From positions 1-28,377 of IMG/VR virus record IMGVR_UViG_2675903575_000014: a stretch of DNA of 28,377 nucleotides; one strand, 5' to 3'. Positions 1,307-28,377 of this stretch are shown piece after piece (positions within the stretch are counted from its first letter, which is position 1; the number at the start of each line of letters is the position of its first letter). The position numbers and the translations under genes are program-made. The DNA comes from a virus (Duplodnaviria; Heunggongvirae; Uroviricota; Caudoviricetes). Below the pieces are notes generated by a model, which was not told where the DNA came from, searched no databases, and saw only the letters and a program-made list of their open reading frames with translations.

Positions 1307-3778
1307 TTAAAAATCAACCGGATTCGGGATCAGTTTTTGCCAGATTGCTGAAACGTATTTTGCCTGGTAACGGGCGTCATCAAGTGCATTATGGCGCTCA
1401 CCTTCGAATGGAATAGCCATTCTGGCATCGAAGTCTATGGCTTTCCCCAGCTCAACGATTGTGCGTACATCGCGATCGTTGTAGTAACGCCACGGGCAGG
1501 GGATCCCCTGCCGTTCGTATGAACGGCGCAAAATCGTGTTGTCGAAGTTGGCTCCATTTCCCCAGACCTGAACAAAAAATTCACCGGAGTTTTCGTCGAT
1601 AAATTCCCGCAATTGTAACAGTGCATCATCTAACGGGATTTCATCGGTCATAATGGCAGATTGCGCTTCGCGTGATTGCTTAAGCCACCATTTAATGGTG
1701 TCCCGATCAATGACTCCGCCAGCAGTTTCCAGATCGATAGTCTTACTAAATTCCGGTCCCATATCTCCGGTTTGCGGATCGAAAAATATTGCACCTATTG
1801 AGATAATCGGGGCATCAGGATTTTTTCCCATGGTTTCAAGGTCGATCATTAGATGGTCACACGTCCTGCTGGTGGATGTGATAACGTGATGACCGTTCAC
1901 CGTAATTAAGGGATCTGCCGTCTCGCCAGTTTCACTATCGCTGGCGTGATCCTGAGCGCTGCCAGCATTCTCTTTGTGTGGATGTTCAGCGCCTTCCATT
2001 TTCTCCGAATCGTCTTCCTGAACTTCAACCTGGTTCTTGTCATCGAATGTTTCCTGGTATGTTGCGTCGCCCATCACCGCACCACAATCAGGGCAGTTGC
2101 CGCCGCCGGTCTGACCGCAGGCGGTGCAGACTTTTTCCGCTTCCTGTTGCGCTACTGGCTCAGGTTGTTTCGTTTCTGGCTCGTTTTGTAACGCATTTGG
2201 GCTGTTTTGTTCCGCTTTCTGGTCGTTCTGTTCCGTTTCTTGCTGGTTCTGATTCACTGAATCGCGGGTTTCAATCCCCTTCACCCATTTCGGATCATTC
2301 GGGTCGCTAATCCCTGCAACAAATTCACCACGTGATACAGCAAGCAACTTATCGGCGTCAGGCTGGCTGATATTGGCTGCCTGCATAATTTTGTTTACTT
2401 CGTCAGCGGTAACTTTTACCGGCTCTGGTTGTGCGGTCGTGTCAGATGCACCAGTATTTTGTTGTGAACCTGAGTATGTACCGTTTTTACGGGCAAAATA
2501 TTCTTCTTTCGTGATTTCAGTAGCCCCTGCAGTCAGCGCCTTATTCAGACCAGAAAGTTTGTTTGCGCGACCATATTTTTCGCCATCCTTGTCGGTGAAG
2601 AGGAAGTAGAACGGCCCCTCACGCTCTACAGATGGTTCGACTTCCACTTTGCATTCGGTTTTTTCGTTGTCCGGAATTGCCGTTTCCACTGCATCAGTTT
2701 CTGGTACTGGCGACGAGAGAGTATCAGTTGCGCTCTGATTTCTTCCTTCATCTTCAAACACGCCCTTTGTAGTCAGGTATTCAGTAATGTATTTGTTCAG
2801 TGCCACAGGGTCTTTGTGAATGTCGATCGGACGTTCACGGACAAGGCCAAAAATAGTCTGGCGGTCGTAGCGAAGGGCATCAGGCTGTTTGCGCATTGAT
2901 GCCGAGATACGCTTCCAGTCTTCGCGGTCGTTGTCGATAACTTCATTTTTTGCCCAGCGATGGATGCTGCCGTCAATGTTTCCGGCATCCACATCACCAG
3001 GCCAGAGAGCGTAGGCCAGTTCGTCATCCAGTGTTTTCCATGTCTGCTTGTATTCGCGATGAGTGGCAGCAATGACCGGGCTGATTTTTCCTGTTGAATT
3101 GTCAGTGTACTGTTGATTGGCTCTGGCGCGGGCGAGATCAACAACAGACGTGTATTTTCCGGTTTCCTTGCGTTCACCTTCGCGACGTTTTTTCCAGATG
3201 CGCATCTCTGCCTGAATTTCGGGCCATTTAGCACCAGGAATACATTTATGCTTAACCCACCCAATGGCGTGCAACTTAAGCTCCGGATACATGGCGTTAA
3301 CTTCTGGCATTTTCATCAACGCTTCAACGATATGTCCGTCGAATGTTGCCATGTCTTCCTGCAACAATTCCTGTGCGCTAATAACCATATCAACGGTGAT
3401 GTTTTCACATGTGTCGAACTTAACCAGGACCGCGTTCTGTACTTCAGGGGACAGCTTGTCAAAATTGACGTTCATCGGATCGGATTCTGGTTCGACCGGA
3501 ATAAAGGAAGCGGATTCCTCATCCCAGCAGTTTTCCTGCATATATTCGGTATCCCAGGAGTCGATGGCAGGGCGGGGCATGCCGGGTTTATCCTCGCAAA
3601 CAAGAAATTTATAAGCGCAGTCCTGAGCAGCCGGATATTGCTCCAGGAATTGCCAGGTAAATTTGGCTCGGGCGCGGCGTTCGTCGCCGGCTTCAATGGC
3701 AGTGGCTACAGCGACTGCACCTTCTTCCTTTATTGCCTGTTCGTCCGGAATGGCGGCGCAAATAAAGACTTTACTCAT
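1307..3778 (-). CDS. Large exonuclease-family protein (823 aa) with a C-terminal DnaQ-like (DEDDh) 3'-5' exonuclease domain
   Basis: C-terminal ~180 aa carries DLETMG ... NGANFD ... HNALDDA motifs typical of DEDD exonucleases. The middle is acidic and low-complexity (Q/E/N-rich), with a CxxC-x8-CxxC zinc-ribbon-like motif (CTACGQTGGGNCPDCG). It occupies the lambda exo / Rac recE position. Confidence 0.7.
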   Translation of the reverse strand: MSKVFICAAIPDEQAIKEEGAVAVATAIEAGDERRARAKFTWQFLEQYPAAQDCAYKFLVCEDKPGMPRPAIDSWDTEYMQENCWDEESASFIPVEPESDPMNVNFDKLSPEVQNAVLVKFDTCENITVDMVISAQELLQEDMATFDGHIVEALMKMPEVNAMYPELKLHAIGWVKHKCIPGAKWPEIQAEMRIWKKRREGERKETGKYTSVVDLARARANQQYTDNSTGKISPVIAATHREYKQTWKTLDDELAYALWPGDVDAGNIDGSIHRWAKNEVIDNDREDWKRISASMRKQPDALRYDRQTIFGLVRERPIDIHKDPVALNKYITEYLTTKGVFEDEGRNQSATDTLSSPVPETDAVETAIPDNEKTECKVEVEPSVEREGPFYFLFTDKDGEKYGRANKLSGLNKALTAGATEITKEEYFARKNGTYSGSQQNTGASDTTAQPEPVKVTADEVNKIMQAANISQPDADKLLAVSRGEFVAGISDPNDPKWVKGIETRDSVNQNQQETEQNDQKAEQNSPNALQNEPETKQPEPVAQQEAEKVCTACGQTGGGNCPDCGAVMGDATYQETFDDKNQVEVQEDDSEKMEGAEHPHKENAGSAQDHASDSETGETADPLITVNGHHVITSTSRTCDHLMIDLETMGKNPDAPIISIGAIFFDPQTGDMGPEFSKTIDLETAGGVIDRDTIKWWLKQSREAQSAIMTDEIPLDDALLQLREFIDENSGEFFVQVWGNGANFDNTILRRSYERQGIPCPWRYYNDRDVRTIVELGKAIDFDARMAIPFEGERHNALDDARYQAKYVSAIWQKLIPNPVDF

Positions 3779-4068: not shown

Positions 4069-4247
4069 CGTCCTTTTTGCATCAGGCGTAAACGGGCCAG
4101 CATTGAAACAATGCATATTTGATTTAATAGCTCCCGTTCGTGTTTTCTCTTATTAATGGCATCTTCAGTAAATACAGGGTTACTGATTCTGACACCAATT
4201 TCAAAACAACCTTCAGACGTATTGACGTTTGGTAATAACGTTTCCAT
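4065..4247 (-). CDS. Small early-left protein (60 aa), possibly Kil-like host-division inhibitor
   Basis: GAGGA Shine-Dalgarno 7 nt upstream of the ATG at 4247. Size and position fit a kil-type gene; sequence similarity to lambda Kil is only a vague impression. Confidence 0.35.
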   Translation of the reverse strand: METLLPNVNTSEGCFEIGVRISNPVFTEDAINKRKHERELLNQICIVSMLARLRLMQKGR

Positions 4248-4430
4248 TATCGCATCCTCAACAATGAATTTTGTGATGCGGTGCCTGGTGCCTCCAGGTG
4301 ACGTTAACCAGTTAATAATTAACGCCGGATACAGAGAACCCACCCATAAGAACCAATACGGAAGTCAACTGGCCTTTTTAACTGTTCCGCGTGCGCTGAG
4401 CCGCATTCACCGCATCACAAAATTCACTTT

Positions 4431-4476
4431 AAAAAGGGCGGGTATCACAAGGGAAAACAAAAAACGGATACCCGCC
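4431..4476 (-). terminator. Putative intrinsic terminator / attenuator on the leftward transcript
   Basis: 10-bp perfect stem GGCGGGTATC / GATACCCGCC with a 20-nt loop, followed on the minus strand by a T-run (plus-strand AAAAAG at 4431-4436). Confidence 0.4.
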
Positions 4477-4719
4477 AAAAGGTAATCAACATGGGTTGTT
4501 GCAGCGGGGTTGTCACTTAAGCGTATGGTCAACCTGACAACCCGGTGCCACTAATGGGGTAAGGATAACCCCGCCATACTTACCGCCGCGCCATTTCGCG
4601 GATTGCCACAACCGGAAGTGCACGGTCGACGAAAATTTAACGACAGGCTATCTATGAACCAGCTACCTCGCCGTACGCTTTCGCGTTGTGTGCCTGCTTT
4701 TAACCACGTCAGGCGAGGT

Positions 4720-4758
4720 GGTTCCTGTTATTCCCCAACAACAAGAAATTTGTATAAT
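4720..4758 (+). promoter_or_regulatory. Putative promoter with extended -10 (TGTATAAT at 4751-4758)
   Basis: A TGnTATAAT element sits about 35 nt upstream of the GTG at 4793, with a purine-rich SD-like GAGAAGAG between them. Confidence 0.4.
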
Positions 4759-4792
4759 CCGGATATCCCCAACAACGAGAAGAGTACTCAAC

Positions 4793-5248
4793 GTGATAGC
4801 AGAACTGTCAGCGGCTATGGCTGCGATAAAGGAGACAGCTGGTCTCGCTAAGGTTATTAATGACGCAAAAACGGATGCAGAAGTTAAAGCCGCAACTATT
4901 GAACTTCAGAACAAACTAATCACGCTTCAGGCGGAATGCTTCTCTCTTTGCGATGCGATCCGCTTTCGTGATGAAGAGATAATGCATCTCAAAGCAAAAA
5001 TTGCAGAGACAGAAGATTTTCAGCGACAGGCGGAAGGTTACAAGCTTAACAAGCTTGATTCTGGAACCCTTGTATATTCCAAGAAGCAATTTATAGGCGA
5101 TACTGAGATAACTGTGTATCTTTGCCCACAATGTTTTGGAAAAAAGGTAATATCTGTACTTCAGCCAATGGAAATAATGCGCTTTGATGCTCATTTTCGT
5201 ACTTTTTGCCCCGCTTGCAATAATAAGTTCTGGATGAACTCAAGATAA
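4793..5248 (+). CDS. Hypothetical coiled-coil protein with C-terminal C4 zinc ribbon (about 151 aa from GTG 4793; alternative ATG at 4817)
   Basis: Plus-strand ORF inside the otherwise minus-strand early-left operon. N-terminal half is heptad-like and charged (AEVKAATIELQNKLITLQAE...); C-terminus has CPQC-x23-CPAC. The upstream 4688-4792 part of the track ORF is probably non-coding leader. Confidence 0.55.
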   Translation: MIAELSAAMAAIKETAGLAKVINDAKTDAEVKAATIELQNKLITLQAECFSLCDAIRFRDEEIMHLKAKIAETEDFQRQAEGYKLNKLDSGTLVYSKKQFIGDTEITVYLCPQCFGKKVISVLQPMEIMRFDAHFRTFCPACNNKFWMNSR

Positions 5249-5383
5249 TTAACCGTTTAAATAAGTTGGGACTATCCAGATTTTTAAAGAACGTACCGGA
5301 TGCTCACCCGTGTCCGGCGCACGCACTCCACCTGACCCGTGAAGAACTCCTTAATTACCAACCTTAGCTTCGTTGGTTAGCTA

Positions 5384-5602
5384 TTAACGCGGGTATGAAA
5401 TCATTCTGGCAATGCTTAATGCCGCTGCTTTTTCCAGCCTGGTGATATCCTGCTCCAGAGCGGACAGATTTTCAGCCTGCTTAGCCCTGGCTTCATTGGC
5501 CCATTTCAGATCCTGCGCTGCATTAATTTTCTGGCGCATCCACTCATAAAGTTCATCATCGGTATAGTCTGGCGCGATGATGACGGGTTCTCGTTTCTGC
5601 AT
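5384..5602 (-). CDS. Hypothetical small protein (72 aa)
   Basis: GAGGA SD 6 nt upstream of the ATG at 5602; charged helical composition; sits in the early-left operon. Confidence 0.5.
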   Translation of the reverse strand: MQKREPVIIAPDYTDDELYEWMRQKINAAQDLKWANEARAKQAENLSALEQDITRLEKAAALSIARMISYPR

Positions 5603-6190: not shown

Positions 6191-6841
6191 CTATAGGCTG
6201 AACTGCACACCTTTTGCTACAGCAACAATTTTACATTCAGGTGTCAGTAAGGACGATTGATAGCGAGGATTGAGGGGGCTTAAATACACGAGTTTTCCGT
6301 CGATGACTAATTTTTTTATAGTCATAGATGGTTCGTTTGTAAGCGGATCTGGGACTATTACAGCGACGATACTACCATTTTTATATTTTTCTCTAGGCCT
6401 CATGATCACTGTGGCACCAACCGGAATGCTTGGCGACCCTGATGGGTTGTGCATAGTGTCATCAGGCATTGAAACGGCAAAATCCCCCTCCTTGACGTCA
6501 AAGAATGTGGTGATTCTGTCGGCATTTCCCATAGTTTTCTCTCCTTCTAAAATTAGGAAAGAAATTGCTTCCCCCCATGAAAGATAGGGGATTTGGGTGC
6601 CTGAATTGTTCTGCACAAGGGTAGGTTCAGTAGACGATACTCCATATAGGAGATAGGACTCAGTAGTTCCTAGTGCTTGGGCTAATTTACTAAGAGCTTT
6701 GCTACCGGGTTCGTTTAGGTCTTTCTCCCAGTACCCTATAGTTACCCCTGTTACGCCAGAAAGCTTGCCCAGTTCGACTTGGGTCAGTCCCTTGTCTTTT
6801 CTGAGTCTCTTAAGCCTAATGCCAAGGCTTTCCATCATCAT
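6191..6841 (-). CDS. cI: CI-type prophage repressor (HTH_XRE N-terminal domain plus LexA/S24-like autoprotease C-terminal domain)
   Basis: N-terminal LKRLRKDKGLTQVELGKLSGVTGVTIGYWE is a classic XRE helix-turn-helix. The C-terminal domain has a Ser in the AVSMPDDTM context and a Lys in TIKKLV, consistent with the S24 catalytic dyad. Three tandem ATGs; the third (6835) has the best SD spacing. Divergent from cro. Confidence 0.85.
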   Translation of the reverse strand: MMMESLGIRLKRLRKDKGLTQVELGKLSGVTGVTIGYWEKDLNEPGSKALSKLAQALGTTESYLLYGVSSTEPTLVQNNSGTQIPYLSWGEAISFLILEGEKTMGNADRITTFFDVKEGDFAVSMPDDTMHNPSGSPSIPVGATVIMRPREKYKNGSIVAVIVPDPLTNEPSMTIKKLVIDGKLVYLSPLNPRYQSSLLTPECKIVAVAKGVQFSL

Positions 6842-10993: not shown

Positions 10994-12874
10994 TTATCGC
11001 CCAGCAGATTTAGCAAGAATAGTCTCGAGCATTTCTGGTACGTTGCCTTTAGCATTGATAGTTGCTGTTCGGTAAGCTAGTTGATTTTTTGAGAGATTGA
11101 TTCCTGTAAGTGCTTCAATTTCGTTGCAGGCCTTACCCCATTCTACCCAGTTTTCAGACAAAAAAGATTCAAGATGATCCGCAAATATAGCAATATCATT
11201 AGTAACTGTTGCAGCTGGAAAATCCTCTTCGGGCATACCAAAGTATCTAAGCAGACTTCGATTCTCCATTGCGTGATTATTCCGCTCGGCATCGATAGCT
11301 CCCTGCATTTTATTTTTCGCTTTGGCACGAGCTTCAAAACCCGCATCTGCATCGAAAAGCGCGAAAACAGGAACGCCAATTGTACTTAGAATCGCATGGG
11401 CAAGTGGGATTGATGTCTTTGAACCTACAGGAACAATAGAGATGCCAGCGGCTTCAAGCGAGCCGTGTGACTTCCTGTCGCCAATTCCATAAAACACCGA
11501 TAATTCTGTTGTCCCTTCTACCAGAAAAGCTCTTTGGGCAAAGAGAGCTATTGAAAGCTGATCAGCTACATTATGGCCAAGCCTTCTATCAACTACTTCG
11601 GCATTAACAATTCCTTTTAATTTATCTTTGACATCTTCGATGGTTGCAAAGTGAACAGAAACAACGGGGTTTGCATCAGATGTTCGTGTCAATCGTCTAA
11701 TCTGGTTGAAATGGCGAGCTTCAAGAAAGTATGGGCTGTGAGTCGCATATGTTATCTGTATGCGCTTATCCGCATCTTCGGCGAGTTCTCTGAGTACTTT
11801 TGCAAATGCTTGTGCTTGGATCGGATGCTGAAATAATTCTGGTTCTTCGATCGCAAGGCAAATAACACCTTCGGTAGAGGCTGCACCAGACTGAGCTAAT
11901 AATTGGAGAGCAGAGATCAGTATCGTGCGTTGAAAGCCGTGCCCTTGCCTTTCGACTGCTGTTTCGGTTGTGCCATCAAGCACAGAAACTTCGAATGTGG
12001 TCTTGGGGGCCTTCAGTTCGATATTTGCAGGGGTAACTGTAACAGCACGACCGGGGGAGTAAGTCGTAACTACGGCGTTCAACTGCGCCGTCATATCCGC
12101 AAGTTGGGTTTCGAATTTTTCTTTGTAGACTTTCTGCTGCTGGACTCGGGATTCTTCAACAATCTTTGCAATTTCCTCATCTGCGGCGGTGCGATCAATC
12201 GAACGTTCAAGAATTCGACCAATAATACTCGCCTTGCCATCGAGAGACTCTTCACTGGCACGAAGATCTGCTGTTACCAAAACGTAATCAAAGAGACCGC
12301 TCATCTTGCCGCCACTGTTGAAACCGAAAAAGTTGGTTTGTAGGGATTCAAGTGCCTCATGTAGTAATTCTGTATGTGATGCTTCCCATGCAGTCATTGC
12401 TTCTTCGACAGCAAGCCCGGTCTTGGCAACGGGAAGATTGAATTCAGGATGTGCTTCTCGAAGAGCGTTGTACAAATCCTTCTTCGCTGTTGCTCCATTA
12501 GCAGCTTTAATATCGTTAAAATAAGGGAAACTTTTTGCGTTGGCAGAAAGCCTTTCTGAACCGTCGGGCGCGCGTAGCCTCCAGGCAGTGAATGTTGCTG
12601 CTCCCTGCGGAGCGTATTTGCCAAGTGCTTCACGATCTCTCTCAGTGAGGTTTGAGAAGGTAACCTGTACCTCAATATCTTTATCAATAGTTCCAAATGA
12701 GCAATCTTTTTCATTTAACATCCCGACCTTACCGTTGAAGAACCAATCAAGTGCTCGGAGAACAGTAGATTTACCTGCCCCATTCGGGCCAATGAACGTT
12801 GTAACGGAATCGAAGGGAATATTTATATCTGTCAAAGTACGAAAGTTTTTTATCCTAACGGAATGAATTTTCAT
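10994..12874 (-). CDS. OLD-family ATP-dependent nuclease (N-terminal ABC-type ATPase plus C-terminal Toprim; 626 aa); class 1 OLD or fused PARIS AriA-AriB-like
   Basis: Walker A GPNGAGKST (residues 30-38); Walker B-like VICLAIEEPELFQHP; H-loop-like YATHSPYF; C-terminal Toprim-like FLVEGTTE, VPVGSKTS and FALFDADAG. No adjacent UvrD-like helicase gene. AT-rich relative to flanking phage genes. Confidence 0.8.
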   Translation of the reverse strand: MKIHSVRIKNFRTLTDINIPFDSVTTFIGPNGAGKSTVLRALDWFFNGKVGMLNEKDCSFGTIDKDIEVQVTFSNLTERDREALGKYAPQGAATFTAWRLRAPDGSERLSANAKSFPYFNDIKAANGATAKKDLYNALREAHPEFNLPVAKTGLAVEEAMTAWEASHTELLHEALESLQTNFFGFNSGGKMSGLFDYVLVTADLRASEESLDGKASIIGRILERSIDRTAADEEIAKIVEESRVQQQKVYKEKFETQLADMTAQLNAVVTTYSPGRAVTVTPANIELKAPKTTFEVSVLDGTTETAVERQGHGFQRTILISALQLLAQSGAASTEGVICLAIEEPELFQHPIQAQAFAKVLRELAEDADKRIQITYATHSPYFLEARHFNQIRRLTRTSDANPVVSVHFATIEDVKDKLKGIVNAEVVDRRLGHNVADQLSIALFAQRAFLVEGTTELSVFYGIGDRKSHGSLEAAGISIVPVGSKTSIPLAHAILSTIGVPVFALFDADAGFEARAKAKNKMQGAIDAERNNHAMENRSLLRYFGMPEEDFPAATVTNDIAIFADHLESFLSENWVEWGKACNEIEALTGINLSKNQLAYRTATINAKGNVPEMLETILAKSAGR

Positions 12875-13385: not shown

Positions 13386-13469
13386 TTTTATATTGGCGAG
13401 GTGACGTGAGTTAAGTAGAATTGCTGCGGGTGCTTGAGGCTATCTGTCTCAGGCATGAACACCAAAGGC

Positions 13470-13560
13470 AGATAGAGAAAAGCCCCAGTTAACATTACGC
13501 GTCCTGCAAGACGCTTAACATTAATCTGAGGCTCAATCTATGAACGGCAAATCTAGGTTA
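13470..13560 (-). ncRNA. Predicted Sok-like antisense RNA of the hok locus (position approximate)
   Basis: Inferred from hok/sok family architecture. The leader (gcttgaggctatctgtctcagg ... ggcagatagagaaaagcccc) resembles, from my memory of R1, the hok mRNA 5' region. No explicit promoter was mapped. Confidence 0.25.
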
Positions 13561-13596
13561 GCCTCTTACGTGCCGAAAGGCAAGGAGAAGCAGGCT

Positions 13597-13752
13597 ATGA
13601 AGCAGCAAAAGGCGATGTTAATCGCCCTGATCGTCATCTGTTTAACCGTCATTGTGACGGCACTGGTAACGAGGAAAGACCTCTGCGAGGTACGAATCCG
13701 AACCGGCCAGACGGAGGTCGCTGTCTTCACAGCTTACGAACCTGAGGAGTAA
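13597..13752 (+). CDS. hok: Hok/Gef-family type I toxin (51 aa; MKQQKAMLIALIVICLTVIVTALVTRKDLCEVRIRTGQTEVAVFTAYEPEE)
   Basis: Single transmembrane helix followed by the conserved Cys-containing periplasmic tail typical of Hok/Gef; I recall this as matching E. coli HokD/RelF, unverified. An in-frame upstream ATG at 13540 gives a 70-aa mok-like extension. Confidence 0.85.
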   Translation: MKQQKAMLIALIVICLTVIVTALVTRKDLCEVRIRTGQTEVAVFTAYEPEE

Positions 13753-24309: not shown

Positions 24310-24514
24310 CGCGGGTTTTCGCTATTTACGAGTTTTTTTGAGGTGATGGTTGTTGTTTTATCGTTTGATATATCTACTTGATAAGTAATAAGAAAGAAAA
24401 ATAAACACAACAACCTGATGATCTTTCTTATACGAAAAAGCATGTAAAATCAGAGGGTTTTACAAAAAACGTGGTTGTTGTATTGCTTTTTTGCCGGTGG
24501 TTTATGGAGGGGCT

Positions 24515-24992
24515 GTGGCCTTTTTATTGAATAAAAGCGACATGGCCTCCTCCATCGGTATCTCTGTACAGGCATTTGATAAATGGGGTGTTCCTCCTGT
24601 TGAGCGCCGGGGGAGAGAGGTTTTCTATGACGTTAAAACTGTACTGGAGATAGATCGCGAGCGACGTCAACAAAACCAGAAATCTTCAGGTGGTGAAAAT
24701 GATCTTGAGGAAAGGCTACTTCAGGCCAGGGTTAACCTGACGGAAGAACAGGCTATTGCTCAGCGGTTAAAAAACCAGGTTGCAGAGCATAAGGTGATTG
24801 ATACAGCTTTCTCTATTTTTGCCCTGTCCCGGTTATCCGGAGAACTGGCATCTGTTTTGGACAGTATTCCGCTTTCGATGCAAAGAAAATTCCCTGAATT
24901 GACAGGCAGACAATTGGCTTATCTAAAAGAGCTGGTTGCGAAGGGGGCTAATAAATGCGTTGAGTCTGCTGAAAAAATGAAGGAATTTGCGG

Positions 24993-25021
<29 letters not shown>
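24515..25021 (+). CDS. nu1: Terminase small subunit (Nu1-like)
   Basis: Aligns with lambda Nu1 (SIGISVQAFDKWGVPPVERRGREVFYDVKTV vs lambda FGASIRTIQNWQEQGMPVLRGGGKGNEVLYDSAAV; LSMQRKFPEL vs LSVQRRFPEL). GTG at 24515 has a GGAGGGG SD; TTG 24527 and ATG 24542 are alternatives. Confidence 0.85.

Positions 25022-28377
<3,356 letters not shown>

Follow-up and report, generated by a model that had tools for sequence, protein, structure and literature searches.

The plus-strand gene at positions 4793 to 5248 of the viral record IMGVR_UViG_2675903575_000014 (IMG/VR; Caudoviricetes; 28,377 nucleotides, the whole of which is called the window here) probably encodes a divergent member of the ring interacting pore 1 (Rip1) family, that is, a prophage abortive-infection protein of the single-gene type, its function being assigned by homology. 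We put the probability of this reading at roughly 0.7. The family is a known one, described very recently, and the window open reading frame (ORF) represents a new and quite divergent member. The gene is preceded by a leader homologous to the sieB promoter and to the antisense RNA sas of phage P22, suggesting how its expression might be controlled.

The opposite-strand gene and its protein

The coding sequence extends from a GTG start codon at 4793 to a TAA stop codon at 5246-5248 (+) and comprises 151 amino acids (aa). Its start is that of the homologues, as the N-terminus MIAELSAAM is common to homologues of many genera, and the same coding sequence has been called by the NCBI Prokaryotic Genome Annotation Pipeline (PGAP) in identical Escherichia coli prophages, under the name "hypothetical protein" (WP_046788612.1). 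A 186-aa reading from a GTG at 4688 was rejected: the MIAEL N-terminus is conserved, and the frame upstream of it is broken in homologues because of a 1-nt indel in their leaders.

A word-indexed search yielded 149 homologous protein clusters, distributed in Enterobacterales, Plesiomonas and Shewanella. An exhaustive profile search extended this to 2638 cluster representatives at E<=1e-3; among the best 150 of these 2638 matches, near-whole-length coverage of proteins of ~140-180 aa was observed in almost every case. Judged by such matches, Rip1-like proteins form a large single-domain family. Third codon positions in the gene vary (0.49 identity), and positions 1+2 are retained (0.77). The protein is present across Enterobacterales prophages and was found in 59 of 5426 complete E. 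coli genomes, those listed being mostly pig enterotoxigenic E. coli (ETEC) and O139:H1 strains. The 149 clusters, the common start, the four retained cysteines described below and the divergence at third positions indicate that the opposite-strand gene is real and conserved. A model-generated annotation of this DNA (the earlier note) had proposed a ~151-aa plus-strand ORF amid minus-strand genes. This description is correct, all neighbours being on the minus strand, and the accompanying worry that the ORF might be a frame artefact without counterparts in related prophages is removed by its conservation, the PGAP call and the coding-like pattern of codon positions.

Identity of the protein was addressed by both sequence and structure searches, as the earlier note had advised, and both led to Rip1. 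Searching PDB sequences with a profile of 30 homologues (hmmsearch), we obtained 9oox_L, "ring interacting pore 1 (Rip1)", with E = 2.5e-20 over residues 6-151, and the same chain was retrieved by the single sequence alone (phmmer, E = 1.4e-12). PDB entry 9OOX shows, by cryo-electron microscopy, Rip1 of phage HK446 in complex with the small terminase of phage T6. In BLASTP comparisons the window protein is 28% identical to HK446 gp37 over 142 residues (E = 9e-18) and 28% identical to gp25 of Pseudomonas phage DMS3 (E = 3e-18), while identity to HkaP of phage HK620 is 28.7%, spanning residues 7-148.

The AlphaFold2 model, built from the homologue alignment, has a predicted local distance difference test score (pLDDT) of 90.7. 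It shows a helix rich in small residues (2-24), a long helix (28-80) and a beta-rich domain (84-150) with a putative C4 zinc ribbon. Chains L and M of 9OOX were the only Foldseek matches in PDB at E<=1e-3 (probability 1.00), with template-modelling (TM) scores of 0.66 and 0.77, normalised to query and target, respectively, and a root mean square deviation of 3.2 Å.

Cysteines C111, C114, C139 and C142 are invariant in the 30 close homologues and in the HK446, HK620 and DMS3 proteins, and residues V94, Y95, L123 and Q124 are invariant among the window protein and the three phage proteins. Within the clade, the N-terminal 80 residues are nearly invariant and the C-terminal half is the most variable. 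Residues 1-24 are predicted to be helical and are Ala/Gly-rich, with a mean hydrophobicity of 0.24-0.40 and a hydrophobic moment of up to 0.34; the comparable value for residues 7-30 of HK446 Rip1 is 0.42, and both helices are mildly amphipathic. The window ORF thus displays each of the Rip1 features that can be computed from sequence, namely homology, fold, cysteines and the status of a prophage moron gene.

Profile libraries were less informative. Pfam, NCBIfam and PADLOC returned nothing meaningful for the window protein, and the only match in PHROGs was phrog_1244, of "unknown function". The SieB domain (PF14163) was not detected in the protein, nor was any uncharged stretch of at least 12 residues. 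An identity with SieB was therefore ruled out, given the lack of both a PF14163 match and a transmembrane stretch.

Published information on the family, as available in passages of PMC13434031, PMC12908700 and PMC13601566, which cite Patel et al., Nature 651:1060 (2026), describes Rip1 as a prophage-encoded anti-phage protein that is harmless alone. According to the same passages, phages that escape Rip1 carry changes in the portal (Pseudomonas phages) or in the small terminase (E. coli phages), and 12 Rip1 monomers encircle the small-terminase 11-mer (T6 TerS, 9OOX). The N-terminal part is given there as an amphipathic helix and the C-terminal half as the ring contact. Pore formation is set off by oligomeric rings of portal or small terminase, and the pore lets dye out of liposomes and perforates cells, with premature lysis as the result. 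Homologues are stated to be widespread in Proteobacteria and chiefly prophage-borne, and the P. aeruginosa Rip1 gene is placed between terminase genes (PMC13434031, section 5). The two-part layout, an N-terminal helix followed by a C-terminal half, is present in the window protein.

Resemblance to DksA/TraR-like zinc-finger regulators, which bind RNA polymerase, had been considered in the earlier note, along with a role as transcription modulator, and the family was there left unrecognised. The likeness is superficial and consists in the succession of a coiled-coil-like helix and a C4 motif. DksA/TraR zinc fingers (PF01258) have the spacing CxxC-x17-CxxC and a coiled-coil hairpin fold. In the window protein the CPQC and CPAC motifs are indeed present in the C-terminal part, formed by the four cysteines named above, but they are separated by 24 residues (CPQC-x24-CPAC) and not by 23 as initially reported, and the domain that holds them is beta-rich and ~65 residues long. 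The zf-dskA_traR profile found nothing even at E<=1, and Rip1 was the only significant structural match, with no DksA/TraR protein among the 50 listed Foldseek hits. Spacing, profile and fold together rule out a DksA/TraR-like identity, to which we give hardly any credence, and the transcription-modulator proposal falls with it. The family can now be named, and has a solved structure (9OOX). Two other suggestions have held: the helical N-terminal half corresponds to the two modelled helices, and the guess of an abortive-infection or superinfection-exclusion factor agrees with the published function of the Rip1 family.

Promoter, leader and a predicted sas-like antisense RNA

The ~110 nt upstream of the start codon are conserved across genera at 0.81 identity, compared with 0.49 at third codon positions of the gene. 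This leader begins with a 30-nt element, GCCTGCTTTTAACCACGTCAGGCGAGGTGG, at 4692..4721, of the general form GCCTG(T)CTTTTAACCACNTCAGGCNNGGTGG, which is identical or nearly so in P22, lambda, HK446, HK620 and more than 100 viral contigs. Two direct repeats of the form TCCCCAACAAC(A/G)AG flank the -10 box: repeat 1, TCCCCAACAACAAG, at 4732..4745 (+), and repeat 2, TCCCCAACAACGAG, at 4766..4779 (+), the latter forming the predicted 5' end of the rip1 mRNA. In HK446 and HK620, the first element is shared with the window, and both repeats are jointly changed to ACCCCTACAG.

A blastn search of annotated phages with the HK446 leader disclosed the features "sieB: promoter" and "sieB RNA start site" in P22, and in lambda the segment just upstream of sieB. 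The P22 promoter is annotated at 29690-29720 of NC_002371 and the RNA start site at 29727. Alignment with P22 places a putative sieB-type promoter of the window at 4727..4758 (+), where TATAAT (4753-4758) is aligned to the P22 -10 sequence TAAACT and a weak -35 overlaps repeat 1. Because the P22 start site lies immediately before a homologous CCCC, the start of the rip1 mRNA is predicted near 4765 (+), downstream of the -10 by 7 nt and directly ahead of the CCCC in repeat 2. A Shine-Dalgarno (SD)-like sequence, GAGAAGAG, is located at 4777..4784 (+), 8 nt before the GTG, in a position kept in the leader alignments. Among aligned leaders a perfect TATAAT was observed in E. coli loci only, and most other genera have GGTTAATCT. 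A consensus promoter/terminator scan did not call a promoter at 4751-4758, the -35 being too weak for the rule of the scanner. The window promoter is nonetheless supported by its homology to a P22 promoter that is annotated with a mapped RNA start site.

The earlier note had placed an extended -10, TGTATAAT, at 4751-4758. Location and TATAAT hexamer are right, the hexamer being perfect, although the canonical spacing of an extended -10 is not present, as the TG abuts the hexamer and does not form TGnTATAAT. Its claim of a promoter belonging to the gene itself gains support in that the hexamer aligns to the -10 of the sieB promoter annotated in P22, and the SD-like element it mentioned is in place. 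We dropped the possibility that the leader acts as a riboswitch-like element, an Hfq- or CsrA-binding element or a pseudoknot in the 5' untranslated region (UTR), because the leader is the P22 sas/sieB promoter module and the mRNA starts only at repeat 2. Control of rip1 by DicF was also set aside, since the module occurs in prophages without dicF as well.

In P22, the sequence of the antisense RNA sas has been published from RNA sequencing (PMC13397905). This RNA is exactly complementary, in reverse, to the homologous leader of P22: it starts 5 nt within the ORF, takes in the two repeats and ends with the GCCUG...CAGGC stem-loop. The minus strand of the window aligns with it throughout. With ends transferred from P22 sas, a cis-antisense RNA is predicted at 4690..4797 (-), covering the rip1 start codon, the SD sequence, the 5' UTR and the promoter region. 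On this strand, the 30-nt element would form the 3'-terminal stem-loop GCCUG/CAGGC, and repeat 1 a hairpin with a GGGG loop. Passages of PMC12197685 and PMC7067206 describe sas as made by a superinfecting phage and as causing sieB to be translated into Esc, a truncated inhibitor, in place of SieB; the outcome, attributed there to Ranade and Poteete (1993), is escape of P22 from its own SieB.

Folding of 26 diverse loci with RNAalifold predicted the invariant 3' stem GCCUG/CAGGC and an 8-bp hairpin with a G-rich loop. Six of the eight pairs of this hairpin show compensatory double-sided changes, 92.9% of cells are paired in the hairpin structure, compared with 28-43% in slid controls, and the covariation score was reached by none of 500 shuffles. 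Rfam models found nothing at the leader, either at the gathering threshold over the whole window or at E<=10 over 4200-5500. The analysis thus flags a widespread structured antisense RNA at a place where no Rfam 15 family was matched in the window. As the leader is the P22 sas module, translation of rip1 would be silenced whenever the leftward promoter pL is active, and a sas-like RNA from pL probably shuts it off during the prophage's own lytic growth, by analogy with P22.

Alternatively, the leader might be a mere recombination linker at a module boundary, joined to a promoter and without a functional antisense RNA acting on rip1. Its first element does lie exactly at the cassette boundary (see below), and the leader is common to many unrelated cargo genes, as expected of boundary sequences in module exchange. 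A linker would, however, not need repeats of 10-14 nt that change in concert in at least five classes, nor a hairpin next to the 3' stem-loop that keeps its pairing through compensatory changes. In P22, moreover, the same sequence is a demonstrated antisense RNA, seen also in RNA sequencing (PMC13397905). We consider the linker explanation unlikely and retain that of a sas-like RNA acting on rip1.

The module is not confined to rip1. The 30-nt element (GCCTG..ACCACNTCAGGCNNGGTGG) was found in at least 120 viral contigs, and the genes behind it belong to at least 31 unrelated clusters (contigs L111-L230, e.g. L139, L204, L122 and L219). They include true SieB (PF14163), Rip1, small membrane proteins, zinc-ribbon proteins and many unknowns; counted as small-protein families, SieB is accompanied by at least 29 others in 120 viral contigs. 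At least five repeat classes, with repeats of 10-14 nt changing in concert, were distinguished in the two-repeat leader, and Rip1 stands behind two of them. A one-hairpin variant of the module was also noticed, in which GGTGG is directly followed by TATNCT and then by an SD-sequestering hairpin. In contig L164, the segment 4033-4600 encodes a 136-aa cargo protein that the Rip1 profile missed. A helix at its N-terminus is combined with a coiled coil and, towards the C-terminus, CxxC...CxxC. This may be a very remote Rip1-like protein, or the design may have arisen by convergence.

The slot seems, in general, to be a hotspot for exclusion or defence genes that are expressed in the lysogen. We tentatively propose, at slightly less than even odds, that the sieB promoter/sas unit is a portable, cargo-independent switch, on in the lysogen and silenced when pL fires, which lambdoid phages have attached to many such genes. 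The repeat classes could then act as specificity determinants, setting which superinfecting phage silences which resident defence gene. A full-text literature search with the leader sequence found no mention of a cargo-independent sas module, which may possibly have been published already. If the unit is such a switch, the window rip1 would be the first member of the Rip1 clade predicted to be under antisense self-immunity control.

Genomic slot and other elements of the prophage

The window covers a lambdoid, Qin-like prophage from its left arm to its centre. An integrase (1-1020, -) is followed by a YdfE/RecE-like exonuclease of 823 aa (1307-3778, -), and a DUF1482 gene and dicB (-) lie to the left of the rip1-like gene. 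To its right are ydfC (5384-5602, -) and a cI-type repressor (6191-6841, -), and then cro and cII-like genes (+), replication genes, lysis genes and a terminase of the Nu1/gpA type. The rip1-like gene is thus placed between dicB and ydfC, antisense in the leftward early operon. Comparison with Qin of E. coli K-12 shows a cassette at 4702..5295 (+) in which 594 bp stand in place of 32 unrelated bp. Since the flanks remain aligned, at 87-97% identity, the cassette is cleanly delimited, in accordance with the earlier view of an opposite-strand moron in the early-left operon.

Prophage context was found at all rip1-like loci examined. In the closer homologues, from prophages of Kluyvera, Edwardsiella and E. 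coli, the gene invariably runs antisense to early-left genes and adjoins the repressor. In E. coli O139:H1 W13-16 and in pig O139:H1/ETEC strains with an identical rip1 cassette, the immunity region adjoining ydfC is deleted or rearranged. In the same pig strains, cI and cro are not annotated, the DnaT-like gene is truncated and the RecE-like gene is frameshifted. Such strains carry the cassette in a defective prophage, possibly with loss of pL control.

Among related systems, HK446 Rip1 (gp37, YP_007111990) is similar to the window protein in full-length collinear homology, in fold, in the four cysteines and in an opposite-strand position in the pL operon. It has 164 aa compared with 151, and the window protein lacks ~10 of its N-terminal residues. 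The HK446 leader likewise consists of the upstream element GCCTG...GGTGG and two repeats, of the class ACCCCTACAG where the window has TCCCCAACAAC. Both gp37 and HK620 hkaP lie on the opposite strand between N and cIII/ral, whereas the window gene is located between ydfC and the DicF-like RNA/dicB, in a prophage of Qin type. HkaP, also of the Rip1 family, shares both the slot and the HK446 leader; Clark et al. (2001) reportedly named it a "putative superinfection exclusion protein" on position only.

Rip1 of P. aeruginosa Mu-like prophages (DMS3 gp25, MP38 ORF25, JBD-type) is also encoded by an opposite-strand moron and shares the cysteines (CxxC ... C-H-x-C) and the VY/LQ motifs. Its gene, however, is not in an early-left operon: in DMS3 it lies between DMS3-24 and DMS3-26, in the packaging region just upstream of the portal gene, and has no sieB/sas-type leader. 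This location corresponds to the placement between terminase genes given for P. aeruginosa Rip1 in PMC13434031. The SieB/Esc/sas locus of P22 and lambda resembles the window in slot and orientation, in the homologous promoter and RNA start and in the homologous sas sequence. SieB and Rip1 are both abortive-type exclusion functions expressed from a prophage, but the proteins are unrelated, SieB being a PF14163 membrane protein with transmembrane segments that the window protein lacks.

Several further elements of the prophage were observed. At the position of DicF in K-12 Qin (4433-4490, -), the window carries a different sequence, UUUUGGCGGGUAUCCGUUUUUUGUUUUCCCUUGUGAUACCCGCCCUUUUU, with a 10-bp terminator-like stem and a U-rich loop, while the flanks are ~95% identical to K-12. 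The Rfam DicF model had no match in the window, including at E<=10 over 4200-5500. This variant is present, unannotated, in 158 of 5426 complete E. coli genomes and may be an allelic small RNA with a different seed. Between the DicF-like element and dicB, the leader at 4270-4424 (-) gave a sub-threshold match to Rfam STnc100 (33.5 bits, gathering score 47, E = 3e-5).

The prophage has a second accessory gene in opposite orientation, at 10994-12874 (-), which encodes a 626-aa protein of the OLD family with an ATPase and a TOPRIM nuclease (Pfam AAA_15 and OLD-like_TOPRIM; PADLOC "Old" 3.9e-55, AriA 1.6e-43), and is likely another anti-phage gene of the prophage. At 13428-13602 (+), a sok antitoxin RNA (Rfam RF01794, 110 bits) adjoins a hok-like ORF (13540-13752), and the two make up a type I toxin-antitoxin module of the hok/sok kind. 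The prophage's own terminase, at 24491-25021 and 24987-26918 (+), is of the lambda Nu1/gpA type (PF07471; PF05876 and PF20454) and is unrelated in family to the T4-like small-terminase ring in 9OOX. As a speculation, this difference might help to explain why the resident Rip1 is not triggered by its own phage.

Proposed action and significance

Trigger identity, pore formation, the defence phenotype, expression in the lysogen and the effect of sas on rip1 are transferred here by homology, giving the following scheme. In the lysogen, cI would hold pL silent, and the sieB-type promoter of rip1 (-10 at 4753-4758) would drive its rightward transcription; Rip1 might then wait as a harmless sentinel. 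Once a superinfecting phage has entered late gene expression and built a ring oligomer, either portal or small terminase, the C-terminal C4 zinc-ribbon/beta domain of Rip1 would dock around the ring. Docking would gather the helices of the N-terminal part into a pore in the membrane and so permeabilise the cell ahead of progeny maturation. Firing of pL, through induction or through infection by a phage with the same module, would produce a leftward transcript that carries the sas-like RNA (~4797 to 4690), and its pairing with the 5' UTR, SD sequence and start codon of rip1 would block further Rip1 synthesis.

Several points weigh against the Rip1 reading and this scheme. Identity to any experimentally studied Rip1 is only ~28%. 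PADLOC (2023) has no model for the Rip1 family, so there is no independent call from a defence database. The -35 is poor, and the promoter/terminator scan found no convincing intrinsic terminator after the stop codon. A sas-like RNA would stop new synthesis only, and would not by itself keep Rip1 made beforehand from firing on the prophage's own portal or Nu1-type terminase. Furthermore, no Esc-like internal start (M9 or M64) in the rip1-like ORF is conserved across homologues. Details of the Rip1 mechanism come from a review and a meeting report.

The low identity to characterised Rip1 could also suit a re-purposed structural homologue, for example a superinfection-exclusion or lysis-timing factor acting on the membrane or on the prophage's own packaging machinery, as could the location in the sieB slot under sieB-type regulation. 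The same might be said of the ring-contacting C-terminal half, most variable next to a nearly invariant stretch of 80 N-terminal residues, but variability of the sensor domain would be the expected product of an arms race against phage ring proteins. Whole-length collinear homology with invariant cysteines and VY/LQ motifs, the fold of Rip1 and the gene position of HK446 Rip1, the very protein used in the defence and structure work, make re-purposing quite unlikely, and we favour a Rip1-type abortive-infection function.

A "hypothetical protein" is in this way turned into a testable Rip1-type anti-phage gene, of relevance to phage therapy and to phage typing of carrier strains. Lambdoid Rip1 genes occupy the classical sieB slot and appear to inherit a type of control known since 1993, a promoter of their own together with sas. 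Slot and sas control suggest how a prophage may avoid being killed by its own assembly-sensing pore, and the sieB slot is marked as a place to mine for further small defence genes.

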